Shown here: positions 2,306-63,890 of the stretch, piece after piece
Layout: each line of letters begins with the position of its first letter
Position numbering within the stretch: the first letter of the stretch is position 1
From: Tubulanus polymorphus
Lineage: Eukaryota > Animalia > Nemertea
NCBI RefSeq assembly: GCF_964204645.1
Contig: NC_134028.1
Span: 14,205,653-14,269,652, forward strand
Direction of reading: 5' to 3'
Length of the DNA stretch: 64,000 bases
Translations under genes and position numbers: made by a program
The notes under the pieces: model-generated
The model's input: the letters and a program-made list of their open reading frames with translations, nothing else
The model's database searches: none
What the model was told of the DNA's origin: nothing

Positions 2306-2709
2306 AGTAATAGGGGTAATAGGCTTTCAGGTTAAAGGTTGAATGGTCGAGTTCATTAAAAACAAATATTAAAAGTAATTTAAAACTATAATATATTTTC
2401 ATAACCGTGTGCATTTCAGTTGAATAATAGAATAATAATTATTATTAAAATATATTTGATTATATGAATTTGTGTATTGTATTAAATCAATTGGTCGCGG
2501 AGCGGTAGCGAAGCGGAGCGACCAATTGATTTAATACAATATGCTTTTAAAATTAAATTTATTAATATCTTAGAATAAATATTTAGTTATAATATGAAAT
2601 GCACACGGTTATGAAAATATATTATAGTTTTAAATTACTTTTAATATTTTTTTTTTTAATGAGCTCGACCGTTCGACCTTTGATTTGAAAGCCTATTACC
2701 CCTATTACT
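2306..2709. repeat. Terminal fold-back palindrome (404 bp) of element A
   Basis: AGTAATAGGGGTAATAGGCTTTCA at 2306 and its reverse complement ending at 2709; apical stem around a GC-rich loop at 2493-2523. Confidence 0.95.
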
Positions 2710-4056: not shown

Positions 4057-4250
4057 AGTAATAGGGGTTTAGTTGTTCTAGATCAAAGGTCGAACGGTCG
4101 AGAAATTTTCCAAATGTGAAAATAACAATAATTTCTACTTGAATTAGTCGGGCACACTCCTAATTCAAGTAGAAATTATTACTATTTCACATTTGGAAAA
4201 ATTTCTCGACCATTCAACCTTTAACCTAGAACAACTAAACCCCTATTACT
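4057..4250. repeat. Terminal fold-back palindrome (194 bp) of element B
   Basis: AGTAATAGGGGTTTAGTTGTTCTAG...CTAGAACAACTAAACCCCTATTACT, with inner stem ATTTCTACTTGAATTAG/CTAATTCAAGTAGAAAT. Confidence 0.95.
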
Positions 4251-4780: not shown

Positions 4781-5299
4781 ATAACGCTTAGGATATTCTC
4801 TCTCGAAACGCAATTAGGAGTTTATAGTTTACAATTCTAAATCTAAATGTAAGTACTGTTTTTTGTAGTTATTAGGGCTATTAAATATGAAACCTTTAGA
4901 TATATTTAAGTGTATTTAGTATATTTTTTAGATAGCTAGAGTTACCGCTAATATCTTTTAGATTAATAAAACGTCATACGCATCAAGAAGCGATAGAGAA
5001 ACTCAAGATACTCTTTCTGACTGAGGAATCAACAGCAATGGATATCGAACCAATAGAAACTGGCGTAGAACCACAAGAATCACAAAAGATCAACGAAGAA
5101 ACTATATAAGAATTTAAAAAACATAAAGACTCCAATGATTAAGTTTAACATTTGTTGATGTAGTTAAATATTTACCGGCAATTGAAAAAATGTTTGTAAT
5201 TATAAATTGTATTTATAGAAATCAAATGATGTATTGGAAGAAACGACTGAACATACTTGTATATGTATTGTGTAAATCTACTTGGTGAATGTTCTATGT

Positions 5300-5760
5300 T
5301 CGGTCGTTTCTATTTGCATAATGAATATATAATTATGATTAGCGCATGCGCATTAAGCAAAACCGGCCATAAATGGCCGCATGTGACTGACACATGTAAC
5401 GCATGTGACGCGGACATGAATGCGTTTGAATTTTCTGTGTTCAGTTGTTTCTATTTTACAGAATGAATATATAATTATGATTAGCGCCTGCGCATTAAGC
5501 AAAAACGCTCCTATAAGAGCGGTTTTGCCTAATGCGAACACGTTTTGATATTTTATGTCGGTTGTTTCTATTTTACAGAATTTACAGAATGAATATATAA
5601 TTATGATTAACACATGCACATTAAGCCAAGCGGACATCAATGGCCGCATGTGATGCATGTAGCGCATGTGTTGTTTCTATTGTACAGAATTTATAGAATG
5701 AATATATAATTATGATTAAGCAAAAGCGCTCCTATATGTCCGCATGTGACGCGGGTATTG
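5300..5760. repeat. Degenerate subterminal tandem repeats, homologous to 62021-62590
   Basis: Recurring GAATGAATATATAATTATGATTAGCGCATGCGCATTAAGCAAAA-like units. Confidence 0.8.
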
Positions 5761-9420: not shown

Positions 9421-10008
9421 AGTAATAGGGATAATAGGCTTTCAGGCCAAAGGTCGAACGGTCGAGCTCATTAAAAACCAAAACATTAAAAGTAATTTAA
9501 AACTATAATATATTTTCATAACCGTGTGCATTTTATATTAAAAACTAAATATTTATCCTAAGATATCAATAATTTAAAAAGCATATTGATTTATTTACAA
9601 TACATAATTTCATATAATCAAATATATTCAAATGATAATAATTTCTACTTGAATTAGTCGGGAAACTCATAAAAAATGAAAAATAATTCTCACACACTCG
9701 AATTTATTTTTCATTTTCTACTCGCTAGAAAAAGTGTGAGTAAAGTGTGAGTGAAATAATTCATATTTTAACAGATTTCGAGTAAAAATATAAGTAAAAT
9801 AAATGGATAACTAAAAGAATATAAAAGTGTGAGTAAAGTGTGAGTGAAATAGTTTATATTTTAAACATATTTCAATATTTATATTTGTATGAGTTAGATT
9901 TTTAAACATTAAAAGTGTGAGTAAAGTGTGAGTGAAATAATTCATAAATCATTGAATATTTATATTTATATGTGTTGGATTCATTTTAATAAAAGTTTTG
10001 TTATTAAA

Positions 10009-10609
10009 ATGAAGACAGAAGAAGAAGAACCCAACTTTAAAATCGAAATCAATGAAACCAATAAATCATTTTCACAGTTTTACATTAGAAATTATATTTC
10101 AGCAACAAATTTAGTGTCCGCAAGACATTATAAAATCGATAATATTACTATGATTAATCAAATATTATCAAATGAAACATATTTAATTACTGAACTAGTA
10201 GATACTTTTGATAATGGTGTTAAAAATCCTAAAGTATTCAATACAGTTTTAAATTTTAAAGGAACTTTAGATGAAAACATAATTAATATTCTTAAAACTC
10301 CTTTCAATGAAAGAAATAATGATATAATACTTTCAAAAGATTACAATGATTTGATTAACTTAAGAATTGAAAAAAGGCAATTATATTATTTCAATTTTGA
10401 TAATAAACAAATTATCTATAACGAAAATTCATCAAATATTGGAATTCAATGTGAATTAGATAATGAAAAATCATTTAAAGATATTGCAGTTCAATGTAAT
10501 TTAGATGATGAATTTAGAAAATTCAATCCTAATGAAAAAGCGCATTGAAAAATCACATAAATCAAAGCATTATGAAACAATTAAACATAAAAACTGGCGT
10601 AAAGAGTAA
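10009..10609 (+). pseudogene. TIR-encoded ~200-aa protein, left copy (premature stop caused by the deletion)
   Basis: MKTEEEEPNF... started from TAAAATG. The right copy supplies the C-terminus VHWYCGGKYLKSHKSKHYETIKH, a degenerate zinc-finger-like motif. Confidence 0.65.
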
Positions 10610-10660
10610 CAATTCTACATTATAATTATTGAATTGAGTTAAATGATTTAAATATCTAAG

Positions 10661-11070
10661 AGACTGTTGAAATGATAAATTGTTTGACAGTTGAAATGAT
10701 AAATTGTTTGACAGTTGAAATGATAAATTGTTTGACAGTTGAAATGATAAATTGTTTGACAGTTGAAATGATAAATTGTTTGACAGTTGAAATAATAAAT
10801 TGTTTGACAGTTGAAATGATAAATTGTTCGACTGTTGAAATGTTAAATTGTTCGACTGTTAAAATGTTAAATTGTTCGACTGTTAAAATGTTAAATTGTT
10901 CTACTGTTGAAATGATGAATTATTCTACTGTTGAAATGATAAATTGTTTGACAGTTGAAATGATAAATTGTTTGACCGTTGAAATGATAAATGGTTTGAC
11001 AGTTGAAATGATAAATTGTTTGACAGTTTTAATGATAAATAGTTTGACTGTTGAAATGTTAAATTGTTTG
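10661..11070 (+). repeat. 24-bp minisatellite, ~17 units
   Basis: Unit GACAGTTGAAATGATAAATTGTTT with variants; inverted copy at ~11846-12255. Confidence 0.95.
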
Positions 11071-11168
11071 GTTGTAAATTTAATTGTTATTTGATTTGAA
11101 ACATATAAAAGTTGAATATTTCTAAAATATCAAATATTTATCAATTTAATAATTTTTTTCTTAAATAA

Positions 11169-11387
11169 ATGGATGGTTTCATTCCAACTGGGAAAAGTGA
11201 TTTGAAACATTGTTTAGTTGCTGGAGGTTTAATATTAGCAGCATTATATTTTTACTATGAGAATATTTCAAAAGATTTGATGAATGAAAATAATAAATTG
11301 AGTAAAAAATTAAAGAAGTTAAATGGAAACAATCACAGAAATAGAAAGAATAAAAAAGGTAATTTAGAAAATGATTTAGAGGATTAA
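11169..11387 (+). CDS. 72-aa protein with one hydrophobic segment and a basic tail
   Basis: CLVAGGLILAALYFYY hydrophobic stretch; start context AATTTTTTTCTTAAATAAATGG matches the Polinton structural genes. Confidence 0.6.
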   Translation: MDGFIPTGKSDLKHCLVAGGLILAALYFYYENISKDLMNENNKLSKKLKKLNGNNHRNRKNKKGNLENDLED

Positions 11388-11425
11388 AACAGCATCTTTT
11401 AATTTCATATATTTTGACTATAAAA

Positions 11426-11728
11426 ATGAGTGAAAATATATTAAACTTATTACATCTAATATATAAAAATCAACAGAATATTAAATCAATTATTATGCTT
11501 ACAGGTTTATTTTCATTCTCAGTTTATAGTATAAAACAGTTGTTAGAATTCTATGATTGCTGTAAAATTAGATACACTGAATTAATAGAAAATATGAATT
11601 ATATTTCAGATAGATTGAATAATATTAAGTGTTGTGAAATTTGTAATAAAAGATATAAAAATAAAAAGAGTTTGAGAAATCATAAATATATTCATGAACT
11701 TGATGAAAAATCATATGATTCAAAATAA
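11426..11728 (+). CDS. ~100-aa protein with a hydrophobic segment and a C-terminal C2H2 zinc finger
   Basis: IIMLTGLFSFSVYSI; CEICNKRYKNKKSLRNHKYIH is a canonical C2H2 pattern. Confidence 0.7.
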   Translation: MSENILNLLHLIYKNQQNIKSIIMLTGLFSFSVYSIKQLLEFYDCCKIRYTELIENMNYISDRLNNIKCCEICNKRYKNKKSLRNHKYIHELDEKSYDSK

Positions 11729-11755
11729 GAAATCGACTTAAAAAATATTAAATAT

Positions 11756-13514
11756 AAAAAATTATTAAATTGATAAATATTTGATATTTTAGAAATATTT
11801 AACTTTTATATGTTTCAAATCGAATAACAATTAAATTTACAACCAAACAATTTAACATTTCAACAGTCAAACAATTTATCATTAAAACTGTCAAACAATT
11901 TATCATTTCAACTGTCAAACCATTTATCATTTCAACGGTCAAACAATTTATCATTTCAACTGTCAAACAATTTATCATTTCAACAGTAGAACAATTTATC
12001 ATTTCAACAGTAGAACAATTTAACATTTTAACAGTCGAACAATTTAACATTTTAACAGTCGAACAATTTAACATTTCAACAGTCGAACAATTTATCATTT
12101 CAACTGTCAAACAATTTATTATTTCAACTGTCAAACAATTTATCATTTCAACTGTCAAACAATTTATCATTTCAACTGTCAAACAATTTATCATTTCAAC
12201 TGTCAAACAATTTATCATTTCAACTGTCAAACAATTTATCATTTCAACAGTCTCTTAGATATTTAAATCATTTAACTCAATTCAATAATCATAATGTAGA
12301 ATTGTTACTCTTTACGCCAGTTTTTATGTTTAATTGTTTCATAATGCTTTGATTTATGTGATTTTAAATATTTACCTCCGCAATACCAATGCACTTTTTC
12401 ATTTGGATTGAATTTTCTAAATTCATCATCTAAATTACATTGAACTGCAATATCTTTAAATGATTTTTCATTATCTAATTCACATTGAATTCCAATATTT
12501 GATGAATTTTCGTTATAGATAATTTGTTTATTATCAAAATTGAAATAATATAATTGTCTTTTTTCAATTCTTAAGTTAATCAAATCATTGTAATCTTTTG
12601 AAAGTATTATATCATTATTTCTTTCATTGAAAGGAGTTTTAAGAATATTAATTATGTTTTCATCTAAAGTTCCTTTAAAATTTAAAACTGTATCGAATAC
12701 TTTAGGATTTTTAACACCATTATCAAAAGTATCTACTAGTTCAGTAATTAAATATGTTTCATTTGATAATATTTGATTAATCATAGTAATATTATCGATT
12801 TTATAATGTCTTGCGGACACTAAATTTGTTGCTGAAATATAATTTTTAATGTAAAACTGTGAAAATGATTTATTGGTTTCATTGATTTCGATTTTAAAAG
12901 TTGGGTTCTTCTTCTTCTGTCTTCATTTTAATAACAAAGCTTTTATTAAAATGAATCCAACACATATAAATATAAATATTCAATGATTTATGAATTATTT
13001 CACTCACACTTTACTCACACTTTTAATGTTTAAAAATCTAACTCATACAAATATAAATATTGAAATATGTTTAAAATATAAACTATTTCACTCACACTTT
13101 ACTCACACTTTTATATTCTTTTAGTTATCCATTTATTTTACTTATATTTTTACTCGAAATCTGTTAAAATATGAATTATTTCACTCACACTTTACTCACA
13201 CTTTTTCTAGCGAGTAGAAAATGAAAAATAAATTCGAGTGTGTGAGAATTATTTTTCATTTTTTATGAGTTTCCCGACTAATTCAAGTATAAATTATTAT
13301 TATTTGAATATATTTGATTATATGAAATTATGTATTGTAAATAAATCAATATGCTTTTTAAATTATTGATATCTTAGAATAAATATTTAGTTTTTAATAT
13401 AAAATGCACACGGTTATGAAAATATATTATAGTTTTAAATTACTTTTAATGTTTTGTTTTTTAATGAGCTCGACCGTTCGACCTTTGGCCTGAAAGCCTA
13501 TTATCCCTATTACT
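11756..13514 (-). repeat. Right TIR of the 4.1-kb element
   Basis: Reverse complement of 9421-11158. Confidence 0.95.
12305..12927 (-). pseudogene. TIR-encoded ~200-aa protein, right copy (1-nt frameshift near the 5' end)
   Basis: Near-identical to the left copy; one extra base in the A-run at ~12896-12899. Confidence 0.65.
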
Positions 13515-13965: not shown

Positions 13966-14335
13966 TATAAAACATGGCTGACCAGGCTGGTTGTGTATTA
14001 CCCCAGCTCTGATTGTAAAGGATTTTGCAAGCTAAGTACCAGGGTGATTGGTATTATTTTGACATCAGCATGTAGATGAAGTTTTGGTGATCGGTCTGGT
14101 GATAAGTTTACTTTATTACTCTAGAAGATCATGGCAAAAAAACTGTATTTTAACTGTATCTGGATCAGAAATTGGATTGGATTTATGTGACAGCTATCAA
14201 ATTGATCACTCACTCATTCACTCGCTGCCATAACTCGCTCGCTCACTCAACCTTGTGATTTTTGATGTGTGACAATCTGTGACTACACCACAACTGATAT
14301 TTACTGTATAACACTAAAACTTTTTTGTTTCGAGA

Positions 14336-15194
14336 ATGGCTACACAAACAGCAATTACTGCCTTTACACAAGGCAATGCGGATTCCTCGTTAAAAGACAC
14401 AGTGATTCCCGAAACAGTCATAACCGAAAATGTATTTAGCGATTCTTTCGCGATGGACAATACTTCTAGTTCGAATAGGAGTAATAAACGTCCGAGACAA
14501 ACCTCATCAACTAGTCAAACTGACTCGGATCTACTAACAAAAGATTACTTACATGCATATATGGAAGAGTTTAAATCTAGCTTACAAGAATCATTTAGAG
14601 AAATGTTAACGAGTGAACTGGCGCAAATGCAAAGTAAACTCATTGATATGGAAAAAAACTGTTCAGATATATGATTCAAAATGCAAAAAACTCGAAGAAG
14701 AAAATGTAGCCATGAAGGAAGACATCTTAGAACTTAAACGGAATACTGTGGCTAATAATCAGTACTCGCGTCGCCATAATCTTCGGATTTATGGTTCTTC
14801 TCTCCCAAACGTTGCAGAGGGTGAAAACTGTAGCAAAATCGTAGTGGATAAAGTCTTTTCTAAATTAAAGATACCAAAGGAAATGAAAGTTACGCAAGAT
14901 GATATTGAAGTAGCCCATCGCCTTTTCAATAGTAAATCCAATAAAGACAAACCACCAGGTATAATCGTTCGCTTCAAATACAGAGACACTAGAGATCGTG
15001 TTTTAGCTAACCGTATACATTTGAAAGGGAAGAAAATCGTGATTCAAGAGGACCTAGCTCCTGAAATCTCAAGACTTCGTGATACTGCCTCTAAAAGTGG
15101 TAAATATGAAACTGTATTCGTATCTAATGGAAAAGTATTTGGAGTCAAGAATGGTCAGAAATCCAGACTAAAGCTGTTTGAAAACTTTACATAA
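14336..15194 (+). pseudogene. LINE ORF1 (coiled coil plus RRM-like domain), frameshifted
   Basis: NQYSRRHNLRIYG, DIEVAHRL, IIVRFK and IQEDL motifs typical of L1/L2/CR1-group ORF1. Confidence 0.85.
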
Positions 15195-15215
15195 TATAAC
15201 TTTGAATTGTCACGC

Positions 15216-15390
15216 TATGTATATGTGTATTTATGCGTGTGGGTGTGTGTACGTACGCACATGCGTATGTATGTATGTGTATGCATCTATGTGTATATGT
15301 GTGAATATGTATGCATGTATGTGTATGTATATATATATGTATATGTATGTGCGTGTGTATGTATGTATCTATGTATGTATATGTTGTATA
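15216..15390. repeat. TG/TA-rich microsatellite-like tract in the LINE inter-ORF region
   Basis: Alternating purine-pyrimidine tract (TATG, TGTG units). Confidence 0.9.
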
Positions 15391-15764
15391 TCACTAATAT
15401 TGTAATAATTCAACTGCAAATAGTCTTTTTTCAAATAGATTTTTGCGATTTTCCTTTTTGATAAAGCATATAGTGCGCCTTCATTCGAGGAAAGCTTTAA
15501 CGGAAACAAATCTTCCACAAAAAGGAATCAATTACTCAGTATATATTATTAGCTAAGTTAGCTATTGTTGTCTCGGAGACACTCTGGTACTATTATGCTG
15601 CTAGTAGTTGACACCGTGTCAACGTTTCACAAAACACTTACTACAAGTGTTTATTGTTTATTTTTCATCTAATCAATCAATTTTTCGTTCATATTTATCA
15701 TCCTGTATCCATTTACAATATAATTTTTCTATATATATACATATATTTTTTTTTCTCTTGTATT

Positions 15765-18700
15765 ATGTGTCTTGGTAGTGCCGATTTTTTAAAAAAATTT
15801 CGAGCGAATGATCAAGATTTATACCTGCATAGTATAATAGATGATCAATTGTCATTTGATAATGAACGATGTCCCTATGTTGAACTTAATGAAATTGGTA
15901 GCAAATTTAAGATTAATCCATCAAACTTAAATGTCCTACAAATCAATATTCATAGTCTTACGTGTAAATTACAATAACTGAAAGTAATTATCGATAATTT
16001 AGCGAAGCAAATTATAATTCTAGATATCATCATGATCTGTGAAACCTTCATAAATGACAAAAATGCTTTATTATGTAAAATCCCTGGATATCAACTTGTT
16101 GAAAACCATAGGCTCAATACTACTGGTGGGGGTGTTGCTATATATATTAATAATAATATAAATTTTATAAATAGACCTGACCTTGATATTTTTCAGGAAG
16201 GTAAATTTGAATCATGTTTTGTCGAATTGAATTTGAATCGTAATCTAAGTAAGAAAATAATTGTTGGAGAAATTTATCGAGTTCCAGGCAATAGTGAAAT
16301 TGATTTCCTAGACAATTATGAAAACCTAATCTCGAAACTAAATGAAGAAAAATCTGAAGTAATTCTTGGAATGGACCAAAATTTAGATTACATTAAGATA
16401 AATACACATAAAAATACCTCAAAATTTCTAGATATGAACCTGGCAAATAACCTATGTCCAACAATACTGCGGCCAACAAGAGTTACGCACACAACTGCAA
16501 CGCTTATCGATAATGTTTATTAATCTCAGAGGTTGGAAACTAAACACAGGAGTGCTATTATATTGACTCATATATCAGATCACTTACCTTGCTTTGTCAC
16601 TATAGAGTGTAAAAAATCACAATCATCAAAGGAAGAATATTTTTCAAGAAATTTGAATAATAGTAATATTGAACGGATGAATAAAAAGCTTTCTGATTTA
16701 GACTGGTCTCATGTAGAAAGGCTTAATTGCAATGATTGCTATGATTTCATCACAGCTAAGAATACAGCAGTGGTAAACGACGTTTCCCCAGAATTTAAAA
16801 CTAATAGGAAAAGAAAATTAATTGAACCATGGATGACAAAATCTATTCTGAAATCTTCTACGAAAGCTGATAAAATGTTTAAAAAAGTCATGAAACTAGA
16901 TAAATCGGATGAACCATACAGAAAATACAAACTTTACCGTAACCAGCTTAATTATTTAAAAAGACACCAGAAACTGAAATTTTATACTCAGAAAATAGCT
17001 ACATACAGTAAAGATAGCGGAAAACTATGGTCTACCATTCGTGAATTAATTGGGAAATCCAATGACAAAACTTCCACCACCAATATTTTTGTTATCGATG
17101 GCAAAGAAACTAGTGACAAATTTACAATAAGTAAAGGTTTCAATACATTTTTCTCAACTATTGGTAAAAATTATGCGGAAAAAGTTCCTAAATCTAAGAA
17201 TGATTTCACCAAGTATCTTCCTAAAAAAAAATGAAAATGTTATATTTCTTTGTCCTACAAACAGTGAAGAGATATATACAATAATTAATAACTTATCACC
17301 TAAAAACAGCTGTGGCGGGGACGATAATTTAAGTAATAAGTTATTAAAACAAATTGTAATGAGCATTATTGGACCCCTCACTATTCTTTTCACTAAATCA
17401 CTCCAGGAAGGCGTATTTCCTGATAACATGAAAATAGCTAAAGTAACTCCCTTATTCAAAAATGGGAACAAAAAAAAATTAACAAATTATCGACCTATAT
17501 CATTACTCCCTGTTTTATCTGAGGTCCTTGAAAAACTTGTCAACTCACGACTCTATAGTTTCCTAACAAAATATGGTATCCTAAATCCTAGCCAATATGG
17601 CTTTAGGCCATCGCATTCTACAACGCATGCTATAACAGAATTTATAGGAAATCTAATTATAAATTTAGAAAAAAAACGGAAATCATTGGGTCTTTTTTTA
17701 TATCTATCTAAAGCTTTTGATTCTATTAGTATTGATACTCTTTTAGTAAAACTAGATCATTATGGTATTAGAGGTCATGCCTACACAGGGTTTAAAAGTT
17801 ATTTTAAAGATCGAACAATTTTTACTAAATTTAATCAAACAAGTTCGAATCAGGATGATATATCGTATGGAATACCTCAAGGTTCGGTGCTAGGCCCTCT
17901 TCTTTTCCTGATTTATGTAAATGATCTGAACAACAATTTAACCTTTACACAGGCGATTTCTTTTGCGGATGACACAAACCTGTTGATTACTAAGACATTA
18001 ATTGTCTGATCGAAGGCTTCAAAAAAGATGGTACGACTGTAATTGATTGGTTTCACTCTAATAAGTTAACTTTAAATATAGATAAAACTAAATGCATACT
18101 TTTTATGCCAAAGAAAGAAACAATACAAAAGGAGAATATCAATATCCCTTTTGGATCTGAAGCGTTAAAACTATCTGTAATTTGTAAATTTTTAGGATTA
18201 CAGATTGATGAAAACCTTACCTGGGAGCCACATGTTAAACAACTAATTAACAAATTAAATAAAAGTCTCTATCTACTAAGGAGTGTAAAGAATATTCTAC
18301 CTAGTTTGAGTAAAAAACTTATTTACAATAGTTATATACATAGCCATCTTGTGTATGCCCTTATTGTATGGGGACCTATGCTAACAGTCAAACAATCTAA
18401 CTCTATTTTCAAAATTCAAAAGAAAGCGGTTAGACTAATTAATAATTCAGCCTATAATGCACCAACAGGGCCAATATTTAAGAAATATAGTATATTGAAA
18501 TTCCAAGACCTTATAGAATTAGATCTACTGAAATTTGGATTCTGTCATCTTCATAAATTGCTTCCACAGCGAGTACTAAACCTTTTCAACATAAATGCTG
18601 AATTCCACAATTACAATACCCGTAGTCGCAATTTTACAAGAGTTCACTGTCACACGTCAAAACTTTTCCACTCCTCCTTTCTTTCGCAAGTCCCAATTGT

Positions 18701-18794
18701 CTGGCAAACCGCAAATAATAACCTACATAATGCACCTAATTTATCTTGTCTTGTATCCCGATTTAAGAAATTGACTTTCAATAGTTATTCCTGA
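15765..18794 (+). pseudogene. LINE ORF2: AP endonuclease plus reverse transcriptase, several stops/frameshifts
   Basis: APE: ICET, GGGVAIYI, LIDNVY, SDHLP. RT: NYRPISLL, QYGFR, SKAFD, GIPQGSVLGPLLFLIYVND, FADDT. C-terminal HNYNTR. Confidence 0.95.
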
Positions 18795-19324
18795 TTATAT
18801 AAATTATGTGTGGCACGATACACTCTGTCATTATTTCTTGGTTTCATACCCCAAGTATTAATTATGTGTATGCTTAAACTACATGGTAAATCACCATTAC
18901 TCCACTCAAATTAAATTATTCGTATGAATATTTACCGTTTTACTATTATGTTAATATTACTTGGTGAGTACCATTATAAGCATCTTCATGTGTTACCAAT
19001 TTTATACTTTGTTAAACAATTGTCAATATATTATCATGATTGTCAATATATCATTATATTGACATTACCATGTGTTACTATTTTGTATAACATCTATTAC
19101 TACTTATCATTCGCATTACGATGTTACTATTACTATTATCATTCTCATTATGATTGTTATTTTCAATTTATTTATATTATCATGGATGAGTCCCATCATT
19201 ATCATATGTTATATTATTGTAACTAATTCCATGATTTGTTAAATAATTACAATCATTTGTTAAACAATTATAATCAGCATAATATTATGTATTATTATTT
19301 ATTTTGTATTTTTATGATTTTGTT

Positions 19325-19500
19325 TTTTTATTATTATTATTACTGTTATCATTATCATTATCATTATCATTATCATTATCATTATCATTGTTATTATCAT
19401 TATCATTATCATTATCATTACTAATATTATTATTATTATTACTAATATTATTATTATTATTACTTTTATTATTATTATTATTATTACTTCTATAATTATT
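19325..19500. repeat. (CATTAT)n/(ATT)n microsatellite in the LINE 3' UTR
   Basis: Directly visible. Confidence 0.95.
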
Positions 19501-19654
19501 ATAATGTTTTTCAGGTGCAGTGACTTGTACAGCCTCTAGGCTTTCACTGCTTCCTTCATTTAACTGTTATTTTTCTTCACTATTGTCGTTATACTATCTT
19601 GTACTTTAAGTTAAATGAAAAATAGATTATTATTATTAAACAGTTTTATAATAA

Positions 19655-25594: not shown

Positions 25595-25715
25595 CTCCTT
25601 CTTGATGACGTCACTAACAAGTGGTCACGGCCGTACGCGTGCACTCATTTCTTTGAAAATCTAGCTTCCTCGCGGAGCGGAGCCTGGTGACGCTGCGCCC
25701 CGCCCCCTTCGCGCT
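25595..25715. promoter_or_regulatory. Possible Pol II promoter: CpG-rich patch with CRE and GC box
   Basis: TGACGTCA at 25606-25613 and GCCCCGCCCC at ~25697 in a locally GC-rich island. Confidence 0.35.
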
Positions 25716-28203: not shown

Positions 28204-28597
28204 AGTAATAGGGAATATGTTGTTTCAGATCAAAGGTCGAACGGTCGAGTTCATTAAAAACAAAACATTAAAAGTAATTTAAAACTATAATATATTTTCA
28301 TAACCGTGTGCATTTTATATTAAAACTAAATATTTATTCTAAGATATCAATAATTTAAAAAGCATATTGTATTAAATCAATTGGTCGCTCCACTTCGCTA
28401 CCGCTCCGCTCCGCGACCAATTGATTTATTTACAATACACACATTCATATAATCAAATATATTCAAATAATAATAATATTCAACTGAAATTCACACGGTT
28501 ATGAAAATATATTATAGTTTTAAATTACTTTTAATATTTGTTATTAATGAACTCGACCATTCAACCTTTAACCTGAAACAACATATTCCCTATTACT
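28204..28597. repeat. Left terminal fold-back (394 bp) of element C
   Basis: AGTAATAGGGAATATGTTGTTTCAG...CTGAAACAACATATTCCCTATTACT. Confidence 0.95.
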
Positions 28598-28676
28598 CAT
28601 AAAATATTCATATATATGAATAAAATATAAATGAATAACTTCTAAAATCAATTTTAATAAAAAATTTGATATTAAA

Positions 28677-31600
28677 ATGGAAGCAAATAAGTACTACTGC
28701 CCAACATGTAAAATCAATATAGATAAATCCCAAAAAGCAAGACACAATAAAACTAAAACACATTTAGAGAATAAATTGAAACTAGAATATAAAGATGATA
28801 TATTAGAAACTAAATTAGATGAATTAAAGAATGAAAAAAGAATGAAGAAACATATAAATGTGATACATGATAAAAGATATTATAAAGAACATTTAAAATC
28901 TAAAAGTCATATTAGAAATATGAATAATGATATTTTAGGTGAAGATTATTTTGATAATGATAATGATAAGAAACATAAGACAATTAAAAGAATAAGAAAT
29001 AAATTAAACAATAAAAGACCATACATGGAAGATGTAAGAAATTATATTAATTCATTAGATAATAAAAAAGATATAGAGATAACCGAAGCATTCAAAAGTG
29101 ATATTGGCCCAGCAGCTATCGAGTTTAAATTTCATAAAGGAAAAACATTAGAAGAAAATAAAAAACATTTAGAAAATATGAAAGAAATAATAAAAATAAT
29201 AACTGATGTTGAATATCCTAAAATTAGTATATCTTCTAATGTAAAGTTTATAAAATCTGAAGATAAACCAATATATAATATAAATTCTCATTCACAACAT
29301 ATTATTTCAAAACAACATATAGATGATAAATTAGATAAATGTTATAATGAAGTAAAAACTAAAATAGAAGAGAAATATTTTGAAGGATCTGGTTTAATAT
29401 TTGATGAAATAATATTTATGACTTTACATGTTTATAACACAAAATTATAATAAGTTAACTAAATCAAAACCAATAGATGAAAATAATGTATCATATTATA
29501 AAGATGATAATATTAACGATCAAGTTATATCAAATTACCATTTAAAACTAATGCTGTTATAAATGTACAAAATTCTGATGATAAATGTGTTCTATGGTCA
29601 ATAATTAGTTGCTTACATCCTGCAACTTATAATATTTGTAGATTAACTCATTATAAACCATTTGAAAATAATTATAAGATAGATAAGTATCCAGTTAGAA
29701 TTAAAAATATCCCAAAAATAGAAAGAGATAATGATTTAAGAATAAATGTATTTGATTTAATCAAATAACCAAATACAAAAGGTAACAATATTAAACATTA
29801 TACATTAGAACCTTTATATCTATCAAAAGATTATGATTCAAACGATGTTATAGATATATTATATTATGAGAATCATTACATGTGGATTAAACAAATCGAT
29901 TTATTTTTTAAATCAGAAAATGATCACACTCGTAAAATATATGTAGAAAATGTTTTCATAGATTCAGTAATGAAAGTGCATTATTAAATCATAAACAATT
30001 ATGTGAAAATCATGATTATTGTAAATTAGTTTTACCAAATGAAAAGGATAAAATATTAGAATTCAAAAAATATGATTACCAAAATAAAGTACCATTTGTA
30101 ATATATGGAGATTTTGAATCATTAAATAAAGAATTAACTGATCAAAATAGAAAAGAAATATATTATAAAAGAAAGAAATTAAATTATAATGAAAATGATT
30201 TTTCAGATGAACCACCAAAAACAAATACAATTAAAAAGTTTCATCAATCAGCTGCAGCTTTCGGATTATATATCAAATCTGATTATCCAGAACTAATTGA
30301 AAGTGAATATTATCATTATAGAAATGAAAATGTTATCAATCATTTTTGTGACTTATTAATTGAATATGAAATAAGATTTAGTAAATTATTGAATACAAAT
30401 ATAGAAATTATAATGACAGAAGAAGATAAAGAAGCATTTGCGTTTGCAGATAAATGCTATTATTGTGAAAAGATATTTAATTATAAAGATAAAAAAGTAA
30501 GAGACCATGATCATTTGAATGGAAAGTTTAGAGGCGCTGCACATGAGAATTGTAACTTACAAGCTAAGAAAATTAATTTTGTACCAGTTATATTTCATAA
30601 TCTATCAGGATATGATGCATATTTATTCATCAAACAGTTATGTCATAAAATAGAAGAAATTAATAATGAAATAGAAAGATTAAATTCAAATAGATCAAAA
30701 GATAAAATACCAACTTATAAATTTAGAATGTTAGCTAAAACATCTGAGAATTATATATCATTCCAATTTGGGTGTTTAAGATTTATAGATTCATATAGAT
30801 TTTTAAATAGTTCATTAGATAACTTATCAAAATCATTAGTTGATGATGAATTAAAAATATTAAAACAACACTACCCAAATAATGATGATTTCCAATTAAT
30901 GAGATATAAAGGCGCAATTCCATATTCATTTTATAAATCACATAATGATTTTAACATAACTGAATTATTAAAAGAACAATTCTATGATGACTTAAAAAAT
31001 GAATATGTTAAAGATGAAGTATATAATAGAACATTGAATATTTGGAATCATTTCAAAATAGAAAATCATGGACAATTAGTAGATTTATATTTAAAATCAG
31101 ATGTATTATTATTAACCGATATATTCGAAAAGTTTAGAGATGTAAACCTAAAATATTTTAACATTGATCCTTGTCATTGTTATTCATCACCAGGTTTAAC
31201 ATGGGATTGTGGATTAAAATTTACAGATATAAAAATGGATTTGTTAACAAATATAGATCAATTACTATTATTTGAAAAATCTATAAGAGGAGGAGTTTCG
31301 GGTGTATTAGGTGATAGATATTTCAATGTAAATGATGAAGGATATAAGTTATTATATATAGGTGCAAATAATTTGTATGGTTGGGCAATGATGGAACCAC
31401 AACCTTATGGAGTATTTGAATTAACTGAAGTTTTACAGAATGAAAATAATGATAAATTTGATTGGAAGAAAAGAATTCTAGATATTGCAGATGATTCAGA
31501 TACTGGATACTTCTTTGTTGTAGATTTAGAATATCCTGAAGATAAAAAATTTAAATCTAGAAATCTAGCTTACTGTCCCGAACATAAAACTGTAACTCAT

Positions 31601-32693
31601 GAAGAATTATCAAATTACCAAAAAAGAATTAAACCCGAAAATCATATTCATACAGAAAAGTTAATGGTAACTCAAGAAGATAAATATAATTATGTAGTAC
31701 ATTATAGAATGTTAAAGTTTTATTTGAATCAAGGAATGATTATAAAAAAGTACATAGATATATTTCGTTCAGTCAATCTAAATGGTTAGAAAATATATAG
31801 ATTTTACCACCAAACAGAGAACTGAAGCTAAAACTGATTTCGAGAAAGATTTCTTCAAGTTAATGAATAATGCATTCTATGGTAAGACTTGTGAAAATAT
31901 TAGAAATAGAAATGATATTGAGTTAGTTAGTAATGGTAAAAGAATTAGACATTTACAATCATATCCTAAGTTCATTGGTAACAGAATATTTGATGAAAAT
32001 TTAGCTGCAGTTAAGATGAGAAGAACATCAATGAAATTTAATAAACCAATCTATGTTGGCGCTTCAGTTTTAGAATTATCAAAATTACTAATGTATGAAT
32101 TTTATTATAATAGAATTACAACCACTTTTTGGAGAAAAACATATAGAAATATTATATTTTGATACCGATTCTTACATATTAAAGATAAAAACTGATAACA
32201 TAACAGATGATTTAAAAACATTAAAACATCATTTTGATTTCAGTAACTATCCTAAAAATCATGAATTGTTTAGCAATGAAAATAAAAAAGTTCCAGGGAA
32301 GTTTAAGGATGAATTAGGTGGTGAAGAAATGATTGAATTCATTGGTATTAGATCTAAAATGTATTCATATAAAACTAAAGAACATGAAGCTAAAAAGTTA
32401 AAAGGAATAACCAAAAGTGTAGTAGAAAAGAATATTCATTTAAAAGATTACATCAATTGTATATTCAATGAAGAAGTTAGAAAACATAGGATGAGATGTT
32501 TAAGATCTGAAGATCATGAAATGTTTATTGAAGAAATTGAAAAGATAAGTCTAAACCCATTTGATGATAAAAGATATATTTTAGATGATGGAATTCATAC
32601 AGTTGCTTATGGTTGCAATTTAGATGAATACTTAAAATTTAAAAGAGAAGAAACAAGGAGAACGAGATAATGAAAAGAATTCTAACGTGTTAA
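28677..32693 (+). pseudogene. polB: Protein-primed-type family B DNA polymerase polyprotein (N-terminal zinc fingers, EndoVII-like insert), fragmented
   Basis: ExoI VIYGDFES, VIFHNLSGYD, RFIDSYRF, YLKSDVLLL; Pol motifs ANNLYGWAM, KLMNNAFYGK, YFDTDS; CYYC...VRDHDHLNGKFRGAAHENCN insert. Confidence 0.95.
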
Positions 32694-32722
32694 TCAAATT
32701 TTAATAAAAATATGTATTATAA

Positions 32723-33076
32723 ATGGAGAGTAAACAAACACACAGTGAGAACAACAAATTATTTCTAGATAGAATAAAAGATACTACAAATGTAAAATCT
32801 GTAGATTATAAATTCAAAAAGTTAACAGAATTAACAATTCATAAGAAATATCTAATTACAAATATTGATACAGTTACTAATAACTATGGAGATAAATTAG
32901 TTATACACTTAGAATATGAAGGATTAAAAGGAAATACAAATAAATTCAGAACATATTTACCAGATAGATTTCATAGATCATCAAGTGAAGACCTAGAAGA
33001 ATTATGTTCTGGAGATTTCTATTTCGTATACAAAGGTAAGAATGAAAAAGGGCACCATGAAATAGATTTCGAATAA
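32723..33076 (+). CDS. 117-aa conserved protein directly downstream of PolB (possibly OB-fold ssDNA-binding)
   Basis: KKLTEL..KYLI...NYGDKLVIHL...TYLPDRF pattern; the function is inferred only. Confidence 0.55.
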   Translation: MESKQTHSENNKLFLDRIKDTTNVKSVDYKFKKLTELTIHKKYLITNIDTVTNNYGDKLVIHLEYEGLKGNTNKFRTYLPDRFHRSSSEDLEELCSGDFYFVYKGKNEKGHHEIDFE

Positions 33077-33093
33077 GAAAATATGTAAAATAA

Positions 33094-33838
33094 ATGGCGG
33101 AATTAAAAGAATACAGAATATTTGCTTACAAATTATAAATCTCATAATTTACTAGTACAATTAGATAGAGAATTTAGGAATTGTGTAGATTCAAAATTAG
33201 TTAATATAAGTTTATGTAATTCTTTTTATAATGTATCGGATAAAACTATTGAACATAGAGTCTTTTTAATTCATGATAGAAATAAAAGTAAATGGTTTCA
33301 TCTTTATCTTAAACCAGGATTATATAATTTAGAAACATTAGCTCAAGAAATTAATAAAAGAGCTCGGTTGAAAATGGGTGCATCTGCTGGATTTGGTTTA
33401 AGACTTATTAAAAGTGATAGCTCTGATAAAATAAGAATAAAATTAGGCAATGAAGATCAACATCAATTTCTAGTTAAAAAACCTTTAGCTAACATTTTAG
33501 GAATAACCCCAGATGTAAGGATACGCAATGCTGATGCTACACCAAATATAATGCCTTTTACACACTTTTATATTTATTGCAATTTAATCGATCCTACAAA
33601 AACATTCGAAGCAACTAAAGATATAACTTGTAATTCTGGTTTACTAAACATTTTACCATTGAAGAATGTTAAAGAATTTGGAACGCAAATAAATTATAAT
33701 TTAACAGAATGTGATTTCAAACCATGCATTCCTAAATTTAATAATTTTAGATTAGAAATTAGAAATCACAATGGATACTTAATTGATTTAAATAATTTCC
33801 CTGTAATTTATGAATTAGTTATAAGATGTAGAGAGTAA
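33094..33838 (+). pseudogene. Minor capsid (penton-like single jelly-roll) protein, 5' frameshift
   Basis: NSFYNV, LKPGLYN, FYIYCNLID and LEIRNHNGYLIDLNNFPV motifs resemble Polinton minor capsid proteins. Confidence 0.75.
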
Positions 33839-33855
33839 TTTTTTTCACTATATAA

Positions 33856-34197
33856 ATGAATATAACTGTTGGGCCGAGTATATGTTTTGGGTTTGATTTT
33901 AAACATGGTAAAGAAATGAGAATTAAACTAAATGATGTAATTACTGATATAAAAAGTAAATCATTTAACAATGCATCAATGATTAATAAAGAAAATTATA
34001 ATATAGAAAAAGTAATTGATTTAATTAAATCACCTTTAGAATATTATGAATTAAATGAAGATGGAATTATTGATGATATTAAAAACATATTAACCAAAAT
34101 ATATGATAATCATAAAACTAGTAATGAAATAAATGTTGAATTAATCATAAATAAGTTAACTAAATATTTTGATGATAGTAATTTATTTGATAAATAA
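33856..34197 (+). CDS. 113-aa hypothetical protein
   Basis: Intact and conserved in D (51339-51680); TAAATG start. Confidence 0.7.
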   Translation: MNITVGPSICFGFDFKHGKEMRIKLNDVITDIKSKSFNNASMINKENYNIEKVIDLIKSPLEYYELNEDGIIDDIKNILTKIYDNHKTSNEINVELIINKLTKYFDDSNLFDK

Positions 34198-34419
34198 ATG
34201 AGTGATAATAAGTGGATAATAACTGGATTATATAATGGAGCATTACTATCAGTTGGAACTGTTGGTTATTCAATGGTATCAAAAAAAGTATTCCAAATGG
34301 GAAGTGTTAATGTTGATAGATTTGATATAAATGATATTTTAAAATTAACATTAGCAGTTACTTTATCTAATTTAACTATTGATTATTTGGAAAAACAAAA
34401 ATATATTCCTCCCATATAA
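34198..34419 (+). CDS. 73-aa hydrophobic protein
   Basis: Intact in both C and D; two hydrophobic/amphipathic segments. Confidence 0.75.
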   Translation: MSDNKWIITGLYNGALLSVGTVGYSMVSKKVFQMGSVNVDRFDINDILKLTLAVTLSNLTIDYLEKQKYIPPI

Positions 34420-34443
34420 ATGCATAATTTTTTTGCTAAATAA

Positions 34444-34838
34444 ATGGCTTCTGCAATTATAACTATTATAGGATCGGCAATTGTTAACGCTTTAGCATTT
34501 ACTGGTGGCGGTTATTTATATAAGCATATTGATAAAAATAGTTCATTAGGAGAACAAAGAAGACATAATTTAGCATTAGAGAAATATAATAAAGCAGCAG
34601 AAGAATATAGAGAAAAACGACAAAACTATATGGATTACATAAATAAAGAATTATATGATCAGAAGATTTCACATAGAGATTTTCAATCAGTCGATGATGC
34701 AATGAGTTTATATAACGCAGTAACAAATAAAGAAAAATTACATCTATACAAACCAATGAACAGAAGAAATATGAAATAATATGCATTTTAGGTGAAACTG
34801 TTATTGTTATATTTGTTGCTTATAAGTTTACTAATTAG
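34444..34838 (+). pseudogene. 140-aa protein with hydrophobic N- and C-termini, 3' deletion
   Basis: MASAIITIIGSAIVNALAFTGG; intact version at 51927-52349. Confidence 0.75.
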
Positions 34839-34858
34839 TAATTTTTTTTTCTAAATAA

Positions 34859-35293
34859 ATGGAAGATAAAGTTGATAATATTGATATTATTCCTCATGAT
34901 ATAAATAAAACTAAATTAAAAACATATTTAGAAAAACAAATATTAGAATTTGAAAGTGACTTAAAAGTTAAAAAGAAAAAATATTTAAATAGTAAAATTA
35001 TATATTATCTTACTATCAGTGGTTCGGTTACAATTTGTTCGGTAATAACATTTCTAGCAATATTCAGTCCATTAACACCTTTAGCTATATCAATTGGTGT
35101 ATTAGGATTAAGTTCAAGTGTTTTAACTGGTATAAGTTCAAAATTAAATATAAAAAGTAATAAAGAAAAAATTAAAACTAATATAAAAGAAATTAATAAA
35201 TTAAAGAATACACTAGATTATATAATAAGTTTAAATGGCCATATAACAGTTGAAGAACAAGATAAATTATTAAAAGAATTAGTTAATTATTAA
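34859..35293 (+). CDS. 144-aa two-TM protein
   Basis: Two adjacent hydrophobic helices flanked by coiled segments; conserved in D. Confidence 0.75.
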   Translation: MEDKVDNIDIIPHDINKTKLKTYLEKQILEFESDLKVKKKKYLNSKIIYYLTISGSVTICSVITFLAIFSPLTPLAISIGVLGLSSSVLTGISSKLNIKSNKEKIKTNIKEINKLKNTLDYIISLNGHITVEEQDKLLKELVNY

Positions 35294-35309
35294 TTTTTTA
35301 TTTATATAA

Positions 35310-36538: not shown

Positions 36539-36554
36539 TTTTTTTATTATGTAA

Positions 36555-38261: not shown

Positions 38262-38281
38262 TTAATTTTTTTGTTAAATAA

Positions 38282-39524: not shown

Positions 39525-39556
39525 AATTTTAACTTTAATAAAAAATCTTATATTAA

Positions 39557-40681: not shown

Positions 40682-40689
40682 TTATTATA

Positions 40690-41020
40690 AAACTATTTAT
40701 ATATCTATAAAAATATTTATATATCTATGCACTAGACGTATGAGTATGAAAGTAAGAACCCAAGAATCCTTGCCAAGAAATATAAATTATAAACATAAAT
40801 TATAAACATAAATTATAAACATAAATTATAAACATAAATTATAAACATAGTTTTAATATATAATTTATTCATCATTATATATTTCATTTAATAATTCATA
40901 TTTCTATGGACTAGACGTACGTAAGAATCCAAGATTCTTGCCAAGAAAGTAAAAAGGTAAGAATCTTACTTTCTTACTCGTACGTCTAGTACATAGAAAT
41001 ATAAATTAGTTTCTATAATA
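40690..41020. repeat. Structured convergent intergenic region (candidate bidirectional terminator)
   Basis: ATTTCTATGGACTAGACGTACG...CGTACGTCTAGTACATAGAAAT inverted repeat and (TATAAACATAAAT)n array between convergent gene blocks. Confidence 0.75.
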
Positions 41021-41037
41021 TTCCAAATTATAAATAG

Positions 41038-41649
41038 TTATTTTATAAATTTATATTCATATGGAAATTGTAGTCTCAGTAATAATTTTGAACCTTTATT
41101 ATTCTTTAATTTATTCATATATTCATCATGTAATTCAGTATGTATAATTTGATTTTCTTCCAATGATTGTTGCATAGATTTTTTATCTTTGTTATAAATT
41201 AAAACTAGAAATCTTATATTCTCCCTAAAGTCTTTAACAATTGAATTATATTTTTGATTTATAACCCATGTTGTTATCCCAAAATGTCTCCCAGAGAAAG
41301 CTAGATAACATAACTCACTTTCTCTCACTTTTGAATCATGTAGATTAGCACAATCATCTACAATGAATAATGTATTTGATCCTTTATAAGTATCAATTGC
41401 TATTTTAATACAATTATCTAAATTTTCCTTTACTGTTTTAGGATCTAATATAATAAACTTTTTCATCTCAACTATATCTCTATTATATGTTTTATTCATT
41501 TCATAAGTAGGACCGAATAATATTATATTATCAAAATGATTCTTATAAATAGTTTCTAACAAATCTAATATGAAATGTGTTTTACCACAATTGGTTACTC
41601 CAGTAACTAACATATTATGCGGTTCAAATATAAATAAATCTTTACTCAT
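41038..41649 (-). CDS. A32/FtsK-like genome packaging ATPase (intact)
   Basis: GVTNCGKT Walker A, LFIVDD Walker B, SGRH arginine motif, NQKY sensor. Confidence 0.93.
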   Translation of the reverse strand: MSKDLFIFEPHNMLVTGVTNCGKTHFILDLLETIYKNHFDNIILFGPTYEMNKTYNRDIVEMKKFIILDPKTVKENLDNCIKIAIDTYKGSNTLFIVDDCANLHDSKVRESELCYLAFSGRHFGITTWVINQKYNSIVKDFRENIRFLVLIYNKDKKSMQQSLEENQIIHTELHDEYMNKLKNNKGSKLLLRLQFPYEYKFIK

Positions 41650-42751
41650 TTATTCTTTTAATTTTACTAGATAAAATCCATTCATTAAATTTATCATCGT
41701 ATCCTTTATATTTCACCAAAGAATACTTTTTTCCTTTAAGAGTTTTCGTTTTCAATACTTTTTCTATTTTGTATTCTATTTCATCTGGATTTGGTACAAG
41801 TGATAATTCTTGTTCATAGAAATAACCTAATATTTCTTCATCTTTTATATCTTCTAATTTATAAACAAAAGGTTTAGTTAATATTATCTATTTAATCTTG
41901 AATATTTCTTCAGTAAAATTTGGGGTATAACCTTTATAAAAAGTTTTTCTATATTTAGATATTCTTACGTGTTGTCCTATTTTAAATTTAGGTTCACCGA
42001 AATCATGTGTAACAAACGCTCCATATAAATTATTCCAAACTATTTCCGAATTATCTTCTTTTCTAGCTTGTATAGGTTTCATATTTATAGAACTATGTTT
42101 AGAATTATTATAACCTTTCACTAAATCATCTAATACATCGATATATTTGTATGTTTCATTAGCAGTAAAATATTTCCACATTCTAGTTTTCAATGTTTTA
42201 TTAAATCTTTCTATAATACATGCTTTTTTATCCGAGTGTGTTGAAAAATAATCTACATCGTTATCAGATAATAGTTTTTTGAAATGTTTGTTATAAAATT
42301 CCTTACCTTCATCAAATTGTATCTTATCTGGAATAGCTTCTTTAAATATATTCTTAAAAGCATTTGTCACTTCTATGCCAGTTTTATTTTTGATTGGAAT
42401 TGACCATGCGTATCTACTGAATATGTCTATAACATTTAATATCCAGAAATATCCTTTGTTGTATTCCTCTAAGTTCTTCATGTCAATTAAATCTGCTTGC
42501 CATTGTTGATCGATATATGAAACCATAACTTTTCTTGTTTTATCCATTTTCTTGTGGATTTGATATGTTGGTTGATTTTGTAACCATGATTTCAATTCAC
42601 TATATTTTATATCACCGTGTGGGTGCCATACGGCACCATTACCATTTTCCTTATCAGATTTAATTTTACCCCATAATTCTGTAACGTTAGAATATGATAC
42701 TTCACTTTCTGGGTTATAATATAACTCTCTTAAATATTCTTCTTTTTTCAT
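41642..42751 (-). pseudogene. rve integrase with chromodomain, internal stop at 41888
   Basis: Intact DDE core (WQADL, QFDEGKEF, IERFNKT); the chromodomain lies after the stop. Confidence 0.93.
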
Positions 42752-42757
42752 CTTATT

Positions 42758-43156: not shown

Positions 43157-43159
43157 TTA

Positions 43160-43757: not shown

Positions 43758-44016
43758 TTATATTAGAGAAATTAAATAAGAAAAATATTATAAGTATTAT
43801 AAAATGATACCAGTATCTTTTTAGATTAATACTAGCTTAGTTAAAGGTAAATAATTTTAGTATTAGTTATTGTTTTTTTAGTATTTTTTATTTGTGATAT
43901 AAAGTATTCTTTTTTGAAAAGAAAATATTAAAAAAACAATAACTAATACTGGCTAGTTGAAGATATGTAATTTTTAATACTTTTTATTTAAAATCTATTA
44001 TTCTTTAACCACTCAT

Positions 44017-44996: not shown

Positions 44997-45075
44997 TTTA
45001 ATATCAAATTTTTTATTAAAATTGATTTTAGAAGTTTTTCATTTATATTTTATTCATATATATGAATATTTTAAG

Positions 45076-45459
45076 AGTAATAGGGAATATGTTGTTTCAG
45101 GTTAAAGGTTGAATGGTCGAGTTCATTAATAACAAATATTAAAAGTAATTTAAAACTATAATATATTTTCATAACCGTGTGTATTTCAGTTGAATATTAT
45201 TTTCATTTGAATATATTTGATTATATGAATGTGTGTATTGTAAATAAATCAATTGGTCGCGGAGCGGAGCGGTAGCGAAGTGGTGATTTAATACAATATG
45301 CTTTTTAAATTATTGATATCTTAGAATAAATATTTAGTTTTAATATAAAATGCACACGGTAATGAAAATATATTATAGTTTTAAATTACTTTTAATGTTT
45401 TGTTTTTAATGAACTCGGCCGTTCGACCTTTGATCTGAAACAACATATTCCCTATTACT
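45076..45459. repeat. Right terminal fold-back (384 bp) of element C
   Basis: Reverse complement of 28204-28597 with a ~10-nt deletion beside the loop. Confidence 0.95.
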
Positions 45460-45630: not shown

Positions 45631-46040
45631 AGTAATAGGGGTAATGGGCTTTCAGGCCAAAGGTCGAAGGGTCGAGCTCATTAAAAAACAAAACATTAAA
45701 AGTAACTTAAAACTATAATATATTTTCATAACCGTGTGTATTTTATATTATAACTAAATATTCATTCTAAGATATCAATAATTTAAATTTAAAAAGCATA
45801 TTGTATTAAATCAATTGGTCGCTCCACTTCGCTACCGCTCCGCTCCGCGACCAATTGATTTATTTACAATACACAAATTCATATAATCAAATATATTTTA
45901 ATAATAATTATTATTCTATTATTCAACTGAAATACACACGGTTATGAAAATATATTATAGTTTTAAATTACTTTTAAAATTTGTTTTTAATGAACTCGAC
46001 CATTCAACCTTTAACCTGAAAGCCCATTACCCCTATTACT
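45631..46040. repeat. Left terminal fold-back (410 bp) of element D
   Basis: AGTAATAGGGGTAATGGGCTTTCAG...CTGAAAGCCCATTACCCCTATTACT. Confidence 0.95.
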
Positions 46041-59905: not shown

Positions 59906-59911
59906 TCTATT

Positions 59912-63480: not shown

Positions 63481-63890
63481 AGTAATAGGGGTTATGGGCT
63501 TTCAGGTTAAAGGTTGAATGGTCGAGTTCATTAAAAACAAATATTAAAAGTAATTTAAAACTACAATATATTTTCATAACCGTGTGTATTTCAGTTGAAT
63601 AATAGAATAATTATTATTATTAAAATATATTTGATTATATGAATTTGTGTATTGTAAATAAATCAATTGGTCGCGGAGCGGAGCGGTAGTGAAGTGGAGC
63701 GACCAATTGATTTAATACAATATGGTTTTTAAATTTAAATTATTGATATCTTAGAATAAATATTTAGTTATAATATAAAATACACACGGTTATGAAAATA
63801 TATTATAGTTTTAAATTACTTTTAATGTTTTTTTTTTTAATGAGCTCGACCCTTCGACCTTTGCACTGAAAGCCCATTACCCCTATTACT
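63481..63890. repeat. Right terminal fold-back (410 bp) of element D
   Basis: Reverse complement of 45631-46040. Confidence 0.95.

Follow-up and report, generated by a model that had tools for sequence, protein, structure and literature searches.

The elements in this locus end in long hairpins whose two arms differ at a handful of positions, and the question raised by these differences is whether they record which strand folds. A sequence-only reading had proposed that they do, with selection keeping one strand foldable while the other is destabilised. The window, meaning the whole 64,000-nucleotide stretch of Tubulanus polymorphus DNA analyzed here, is AT-rich and packed with related Polintons. 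Two of these are full-length, namely C (28204-45459, 17.3 kb, target-site duplication (TSD) CATAGA) and D (45631-63890, 18.3 kb, TSD TACGTT), although the reading frames of both are broken. Element A is a fragment whose right end, at 2306-2709, was assigned through its similarity to the right end of D, and it is approximately 89% identical to the ends of D. Element B starts at 4057, has the opposite orientation, and is broken up by element E (4.1 kb) and by a LINE; the LINE-like insertion lies at about 14000-19600 and has endonuclease and reverse transcriptase matches. Element E (9421-13514, TSD TATATG) sits in the ATPase gene of B and is a non-autonomous derivative of 4.1 kb, with terminal inverted repeats (TIRs) of about 1.75 kb that are separated by just 0.6 kb. 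The ordinary TIRs of the Polintons measure 560-590 bp.

These elements resemble Polintons/Mavericks in having a pPolB polymerase, an RVE integrase, an A32 ATPase, TIRs, a 6-bp TSD and a size of 17-18 kb (the last three as seen in C and D), where the described range for Polintons is a TSD of 5-8 bp and a length of 13-25 kb (PMC10748475). In C, the N-terminal piece of the broken pPolB gene (28677..29450, plus strand) starts 80 bp inside the inner arm of the hairpin and encodes zinc fingers and a predicted terminal-protein (D1) domain. A second piece, with an endonuclease VII-like insert, follows at 30389..31789 on the plus strand (PF03175, 7.6e-9; PF02945, 2e-5), and a further PF03175 match lies at 31782-32162. 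Full-length relatives of this polymerase have 1319-1365 aa. On the minus strand, C carries an A32-type packaging ATPase (41038..41649, PF04665, 4e-11) and a retroviral-type integrase (41888..42751, PF00665, 1.3e-9). The PF04665 match is present in B, C and D, and the integrase copies of B and D have a chromodomain. For the capsid there is only a weak Capsid_N match (55664-56350, E 0.0047), and a general Pfam scan of 53 ORFs returned no maturation protease or minor capsid match. Other features include subterminal 125-bp tandem repeats close to the integrase-side end of D (62022-62589) and B (5286-5719), and a 144-aa ORF that is conserved in C and D (34859-35293, 52369-52803) with weak SLATT/2TM and PulA_N1 matches. 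The endonuclease VII-like insert falls within the exonuclease region of pPolB (30389-30570 and about 48000-48150), has an apparently intact CxxC..DHDH..N motif and is common in relatives. In the parts of the source consulted, such inserts are regarded as homing endonucleases (PMC11161782); a branched-DNA nuclease adjoining hairpin ends may nevertheless be of interest.

Wherever an end of A, B, C or D is visible, it is a hairpin in which the inner arm ends exactly opposite the terminal base. The six hairpins of the window are those at the right end of A (2306..2709, 404 nt), the left end of B (4057..4250, 194 nt), both ends of C (28204..28597 and 45076..45459) and both ends of D (45631..46040 and 63481..63890), with lengths of 384-410 nt in C and D. 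Their 3'-terminal strand is the plus strand at right ends and the minus strand at left ends. E has outer arms at both of its ends and no inner arm, so that eight outer and six inner arms are available for comparison. In A, the last base (2709) pairs with 2306, and this terminus is backed by reads from a DNA run of the same species, in which 1795 loose ends have an agreement of 0.34, that is, many different flanks. Counting from the terminus, positions 1-24 (2306..2329 in the inner arm of A, plus strand) are the same in the inner and outer arms within each subfamily. They are followed by a cluster of wobble pairs at positions 25-47, with its inner half at 2330..2352 and its outer half at 2663..2685 (both plus strand). 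Across the window, inner arms are invariant at positions 25-46 (6/6) and outer arms always have C at positions 28 and 35 (8/8). B is shorter than the others and has a different interior, but the same wobble cluster, with the minus strand as its G·T strand.

All of the arm strings quoted in the sequence-only reading were found in the sequence, including the six differences that it had counted in A. These are substitutions at hairpin positions 25, 26, 28, 35, 39 and 47 (inner 2330, 2331, 2333, 2340, 2344, 2352; outer 2685, 2684, 2682, 2675, 2671, 2663). Each of the six gives G·T on the plus strand, whose 3' end is the terminus. Over the six stems, the 3'-terminal strand has 34 G·T, 5 A·C and 13 transversion mismatches, besides 10 gap columns. 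Exceptions are more numerous than the single one that was reported, in D: four of the six hairpins (and about 93% of outer-arm reads) show A·C at position 112, where the stem has its far end, an A·C at 84 is private to the right end of D, and transversions occur in C at 55 (A/T) and in D at 39 (G/T).

Most of these mismatches are inherited, as the caveat of shared ancestry had anticipated, and sites 28, 35 and 39, which are common to all six hairpins, should be counted once. We set aside private differences, defined as those between the two ends of one element plus position 69 of B, and these comprise 3 G·T, 1 A·C and 6 transversions. Position 69, one of the two extra sites of B, looks private to the window copy, since the other base is present at 4182 in 783 of 784 reads, with B-like families mixed in. 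The remaining distinct sites number 10 G·T (25, 26, 27, 28, 35, 39, 47, 62, 107 and B70) versus 1 A·C (112), with a binomial p=0.012. Merging positions 25-28 reduces this to 7 versus 1 (p=0.07), and limiting the count to sites found in at least two window elements gives 6 versus 1 (p=0.125). Sites 25, 27 and 107 each occur in one window hairpin, yet are common alleles in reads. These counts rest on six window hairpins and unphased reads. The polarity is real and probably more than chance, although the independent events behind it are few.

Reads from the species, whose depth implies hundreds of TIR copies, add variants to this picture. At position 107, the share of T is 0.71 in inner and 0.42 in outer arms, which in unphased reads fits a path from C:G through T·G to T:A. 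At position 16, the share of G is 0.49 in inner and 0.58 in outer arms, a slight lean towards A·C that is unphased and mapping-dependent. A subfamily with a minimal hairpin (a stem of about 47 bp and a tiny loop) is seen through joints at 2343-2663 (11 reads) and 4102-4241 (18 reads), and keeps T35 in the inner arm. Matching counts of T at outer 25 (378), A at outer 39 (380) and G at inner 39 (508) suggest, from unphased reads, that position 39 of this variant became outer A and inner G, which is again G·T. Further B-like loop variants are also present. Molecule ends in the DNA run form no pile-up, which speaks neither for nor against free genomes, and in two further read runs only short AT-rich chance pieces matched.

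The strand that carries the wobble pairs is also the one that folds better. In A, the 3'-terminal strand has a folding energy of -133.6 kcal/mol and the other strand -122.4 kcal/mol, compared with about -30 for shuffles. Across the six hairpins, the 3' strand ranges from -80 to -134 kcal/mol and the 5' strand from -73 to -122 kcal/mol, being 5-13 kcal/mol weaker. At 37 C, the 5' strand opens only locally, at positions 25-47, where its pairing is 0.68-0.77 as opposed to 0.84-0.97 on the 3' strand; energies at 70 and 80 C were erratic and were discarded. The loops point the same way. A has an apical 24-bp stem with a purine-rich loop at 2475..2541 (plus strand), with overlapping GC-GNA-GC / GC-GNNA-GC motifs at 2497-2519. 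Every long hairpin (5/5, in A, C and D) has 4-5 such motifs on its 3' strand and 0 on its 5' strand, whereas the B hairpin has no GNA motifs. GCGNAGC matches the window 15 times where 1.4 are expected, with 11 matches in the loops of these hairpins, whose copies are related; GCGGAGC at 25672-25683 is not within a hairpin. The orientation of the loop is identical in 5/5 long hairpins, and outer and inner arm types are never swapped in the 14 arms. The idea of one foldable and one destabilised strand is thus upheld in its first half by the polarity, the loop motifs and the fixed orientation. Its second half is too strong, as the 5' strand still folds.

The tip of the hairpin has a history of its own. 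At positions 11-23, 11 sites vary among subfamilies, and the two arms match at 11/11 of them in five of the six hairpins and at 10/11 in the right end of D. Matching at variable positions implies that the arms are copied onto each other at the tip, and since a fold-back can extend only a 3' end, such copying would point to folding of the 3' strand. The cluster at 26-39 persisted although the tip (1-24) and, in B, positions 47-91 were re-matched and the interior of B was replaced.

There are possible explanations for this polarity other than selection on folding, which we infer from mismatches whose core is shared by descent. The first is a frozen accident or strand-biased mutation, where a single ancestral fold-back duplication acquired a small number of C>T and A>G changes in one of its strands that were then inherited without any selection for folding. 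Either kind of change, C>T or A>G, creates G·T on the strand where it occurs, which makes deamination of an exposed strand the main competing account. The sharing of sites 28, 35 and 39 and the loss of significance on merging are what such an accident predicts, the unpaired 5' loop segments are G-rich and C-poor on the 3' strand (7-8 G, 0-1 C), which could also stem from loss of C there, and E is mobile without an inner arm. However, the required strand bias is missing from the element bodies. When B, C and D were compared three ways across 6652 aligned columns, neither C>T/G>A nor A>G/T>C was significantly asymmetric in any of four bins. In trios with A near the right end, G>A exceeds C>T (14/71 versus 5/81, p=0.014; p=0.014-0.023, uncorrected and in coding DNA), which is opposite to the direction that strand-biased mutation needs. 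The left and right TIRs of E differ by 7 G·T and 5 A·C, and unrelated long inverted repeats in other contigs have G·T:A·C ratios of 25:25, 12:11, 4:3 and 3:3. The 3' strand of the 200 nt interior beside the inner arm is not consistently G-rich (G 13-24, C 17-24). Strand displacement and inward transcription expose the 5'-terminal strand longest, rather than the 3', so that exposure-driven mutation predicts the opposite polarity. The persistence of the wobble cluster next to re-matched segments also speaks against an accident. CpG decay as the sole cause was rejected, in agreement with the argument of the sequence-only reading, as it is strand-symmetric and fits only 2/10 sites (35 and 39). Taken together, we regard an accident of this kind as unlikely, while giving it real weight.

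A second explanation is a self-priming hairpin of the parvovirus type, or of the type proposed for Halocafeteria virophages, where the paired 3'-OH primes synthesis inward and a nuclease resolves the end. The 3' base pairs exactly where the inner arm begins, with no mismatch at positions 1-24, which makes a good primer-template, and the polymerase carries the CxxC..DHDH..N endonuclease VII-like insert, perhaps the resolving nuclease. The model has been put forward in a preprint (bioRxiv 10.64898/2026.07.28.741278), although the portion of it available to us links palindromes mainly to non-pPolB elements. Resolution of this type should leave flip and flop forms, but there is one loop orientation in the long hairpins and the arm types are fixed in 8 outer and 6 inner arms, which makes AAV- or poxvirus-type flip/flop resolution unlikely. 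The top loose ends listed include no inner-type arms beside mixed host DNA, and the 53 ORFs have no HUH Rep in the Pfam scan. The polymerase also keeps a terminal-protein domain, as predicted from its modelled structure. The D1 model (pLDDT 72.8), predicted from an alignment of eight rows, has the order strand-strand-helix-strand-strand-helix-loop-strand, with Ser238 in a Gly-flanked loop ahead of the last strand; the description of the fold as a sheet with two helices, against which it was compared, comes from the consulted parts of PMC11161782. In Foldseek, the D1 model matches adintovirus, bidnavirus-like, MELD and mavirus polymerases (E 1.9e-6 to 1.2e-2). Downstream of D1 there is a Cys/His pattern like that of a vOTU protease, assigned by eye. 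Self-priming is accordingly an improbable account of these ends.

A third explanation holds that the arms are separate duplex binding sites, with an origin or integrase site outside and a promoter element inside, and that the G·T polarity is a by-product. The invariance of inner arms at 25-46 in 6/6, about 80-130 bp upstream of the first gene, would suit a promoter element, and outer arms have a CAAAG core at 4082-4089, 28229-28236, 45427-45434 and 2677-2684, with T in inner arms at the C of this core (position 28). This core resembles TCF/LEF or DR1 nuclear-receptor sites. WWCAAAGG is present in 4/8 outer and 0/6 inner arms, but D and E are without it, and its 14 matches in the window compared with 9 expected show no enrichment. 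The matched tip (1-24), the flush symmetry and the loop motifs are left unexplained by separate sites, and we consider this account more doubtful still. As a separate observation, positions 24-50 can be read as four AGGTCA-like hexamers. Finally, RNA stems are typically marked by a G·U bias and there are weak miRNA-family matches in Rfam, far under the cut-offs, but a hairpin that works as RNA, for example as a small-RNA precursor, is very unlikely, given that genes at both ends read inward, so that the G·T strand is the template and not the mRNA strand, and that the stem stops exactly at the DNA terminus.

It is probable that the 3'-terminal strand folds for some purpose. The best hypothesis for that purpose, to which we give about an even chance, is that this strand folds back when single-stranded and that the resulting local panhandle rebuilds a duplex origin for protein-primed copying and allows repair of the tip. 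Strand-displacement synthesis, or excision as ssDNA, would free a single strand, whose 3' end would find its partner in the inner arm, at a distance of about 200-400 nt, rather than in the 5' end, which lies 17-18 kb off. Such a fold-back could rebuild the duplex origin without joining distant ends, and a frayed 3' tip could be re-extended on the inner arm. Changes that yield G·T on the folding strand would be tolerated and those that yield A·C mostly purged, while re-extension of the tip would keep positions 1-24 equal and rarely get to 25-47. More speculatively, at sites with C in the outer and T in the inner arm, G would be left in just two forms, opposite C in the outer duplex end (C:G) and opposite T in the 3' fold-back (T·G). 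A factor that reads this G might then recognise both of these forms, but neither the inner duplex copy nor the 5' fold-back. This would amount to a strand-reading switch, with the wobble positions arranged such that the full origin is shown by the two recognised forms alone and the other two stay silent; we hold it as a tentative idea that is more likely wrong than right.

Several observations weigh against the local panhandle. The polarity loses significance when sites are merged (p=0.07-0.125), and the energy gap is small, with the 5' strand folding too. Since TIRs of 560-590 bp already permit a long-range panhandle, a local hairpin may be superfluous. At 25-47, the outer arm varies more than the inner, which is unexpected if the inner arm were plainly a disabled copy. 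E is the main caution. It lacks the inner arm yet integrated with a clean TSD, and the hairpin is therefore dispensable for integration. Its TIRs are a mixture of A/C/D-type and B-type loop pieces, and contain an ORF (9928-10548) and a 24-bp tandem array; the element looks like a snap-back (copy-back) defective genome. TIRs as long and as close as these would snap back unaided, which fits the model of a local panhandle, but this is a single case.

We also searched for similar ends elsewhere. A pattern scan of viral contigs gave 0 matches, and 71 pattern matches in metagenome contigs, all of which lacked the terminal motif upstream, were taken as chance. Protein-based searches for loci returned 0, 2 (distant), 11, 27 (genome contigs) and 0, for a total of 40, and no comparable hairpin was found at a recognisable element end among the 40 loci as listed, in comparisons that skipped L084, a 732-kb contig. 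The 27 contigs (L085-L111) are in bacterial and archaeal MAGs and carry genes for proteins related to the Polinton pPolB; most of them have the appearance of eukaryotic or viral DNA that was mis-binned. The searched literature contains no report of strand-polar mismatches in Polinton TIRs, while subscription papers, Repbase reports and preprint supplements may hold hairpin TIRs. The replication of Polintons has been modelled and, as far as the literature examined goes, apparently not demonstrated. A strand-polar hairpin shows which strand has to be single-stranded, and at which end, and makes the question testable with short oligos. It also offers a cheap computational test (G·T versus A·C class, flip/flop) for the terminal palindromes emerging in Polintons, PLVs and virophages. 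If true, the switch would be sequence-level evidence for a single-stranded stage of Polintons and for a local panhandle, the latter being a type of protein-primed origin undescribed for eukaryotic viruses in the searchable literature.

Among known systems, these are elements of a known kind in a form, the long, imperfect and strand-polar terminal hairpin, that we could not find described. An ssDNA or panhandle intermediate has been proposed for Polintons, as retold in the consulted part of PMC4046053, and the words 'hairpin' and 'palindrom' are absent from a survey of nematode Polintons (PMC10748475); here, each TIR opens with its own flush hairpin of 194-410 nt with strand-polar mismatches. 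Virophages of Halocafeteria seosinensis and PLV subtype 4 have a palindrome in the TIR beside the TSD of an RVE-integrase element, with a proposed role for hairpins in replication (bioRxiv 10.64898/2026.07.28.741278, in the text available to us, where 'mismatch', 'wobble', 'imperfect' and 'flip' are absent as words). Going by the same text, those palindromes measure 52 nt in the subtype that is figured and belong for the most part to elements lacking pPolB, whereas the hairpins here are long, branched, imperfect and strand-polar, and the predicted terminal-protein domain is kept. Parvoviruses and poxviruses have imperfect terminal hairpins, and mismatches are needed for virion maturation in vaccinia (PMC8956199, consulted in part), but those hairpins occur in flip and flop forms and ours in a single orientation. 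For adenovirus and PRD1, pairing of the inverted repeats is believed to give the displaced strand a duplex origin again and to restore end homology as well, and direct evidence for these panhandles is still lacking according to the part of PMC11886824 consulted; there the two genome ends pair, and here the partner lies within 400 nt of each end. Streptomyces telomeres belong to a protein-primed linear replicon whose 3' single strand folds, with GNA loops that have sheared G:A pairs, and truncated ends are mended on the fold-back (PMC5449611, consulted in part). That replicon has an internal origin, many short palindromes and Tap/Tpg end patching, while the 53 ORFs here include no member of the Tap/Tpg family and the element has its own pPolB; the trait in common is the GNA-loop hairpins on the 3' strand, in A, C and D and not in B. 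In integron attC sites, the strand that is used is richer in G:T pairs (1.24 versus 0.39 per site) and has purine-rich loops with a small energy gap (PMC5027507, consulted in part). The same feature, an excess of G:T and a purine-rich loop on one strand, is present here. As attC is a substrate of a tyrosine recombinase in bacterial arrays, and these hairpins are the ends of a replicon with an RVE-type integrase, the resemblance is one of how the two would work.
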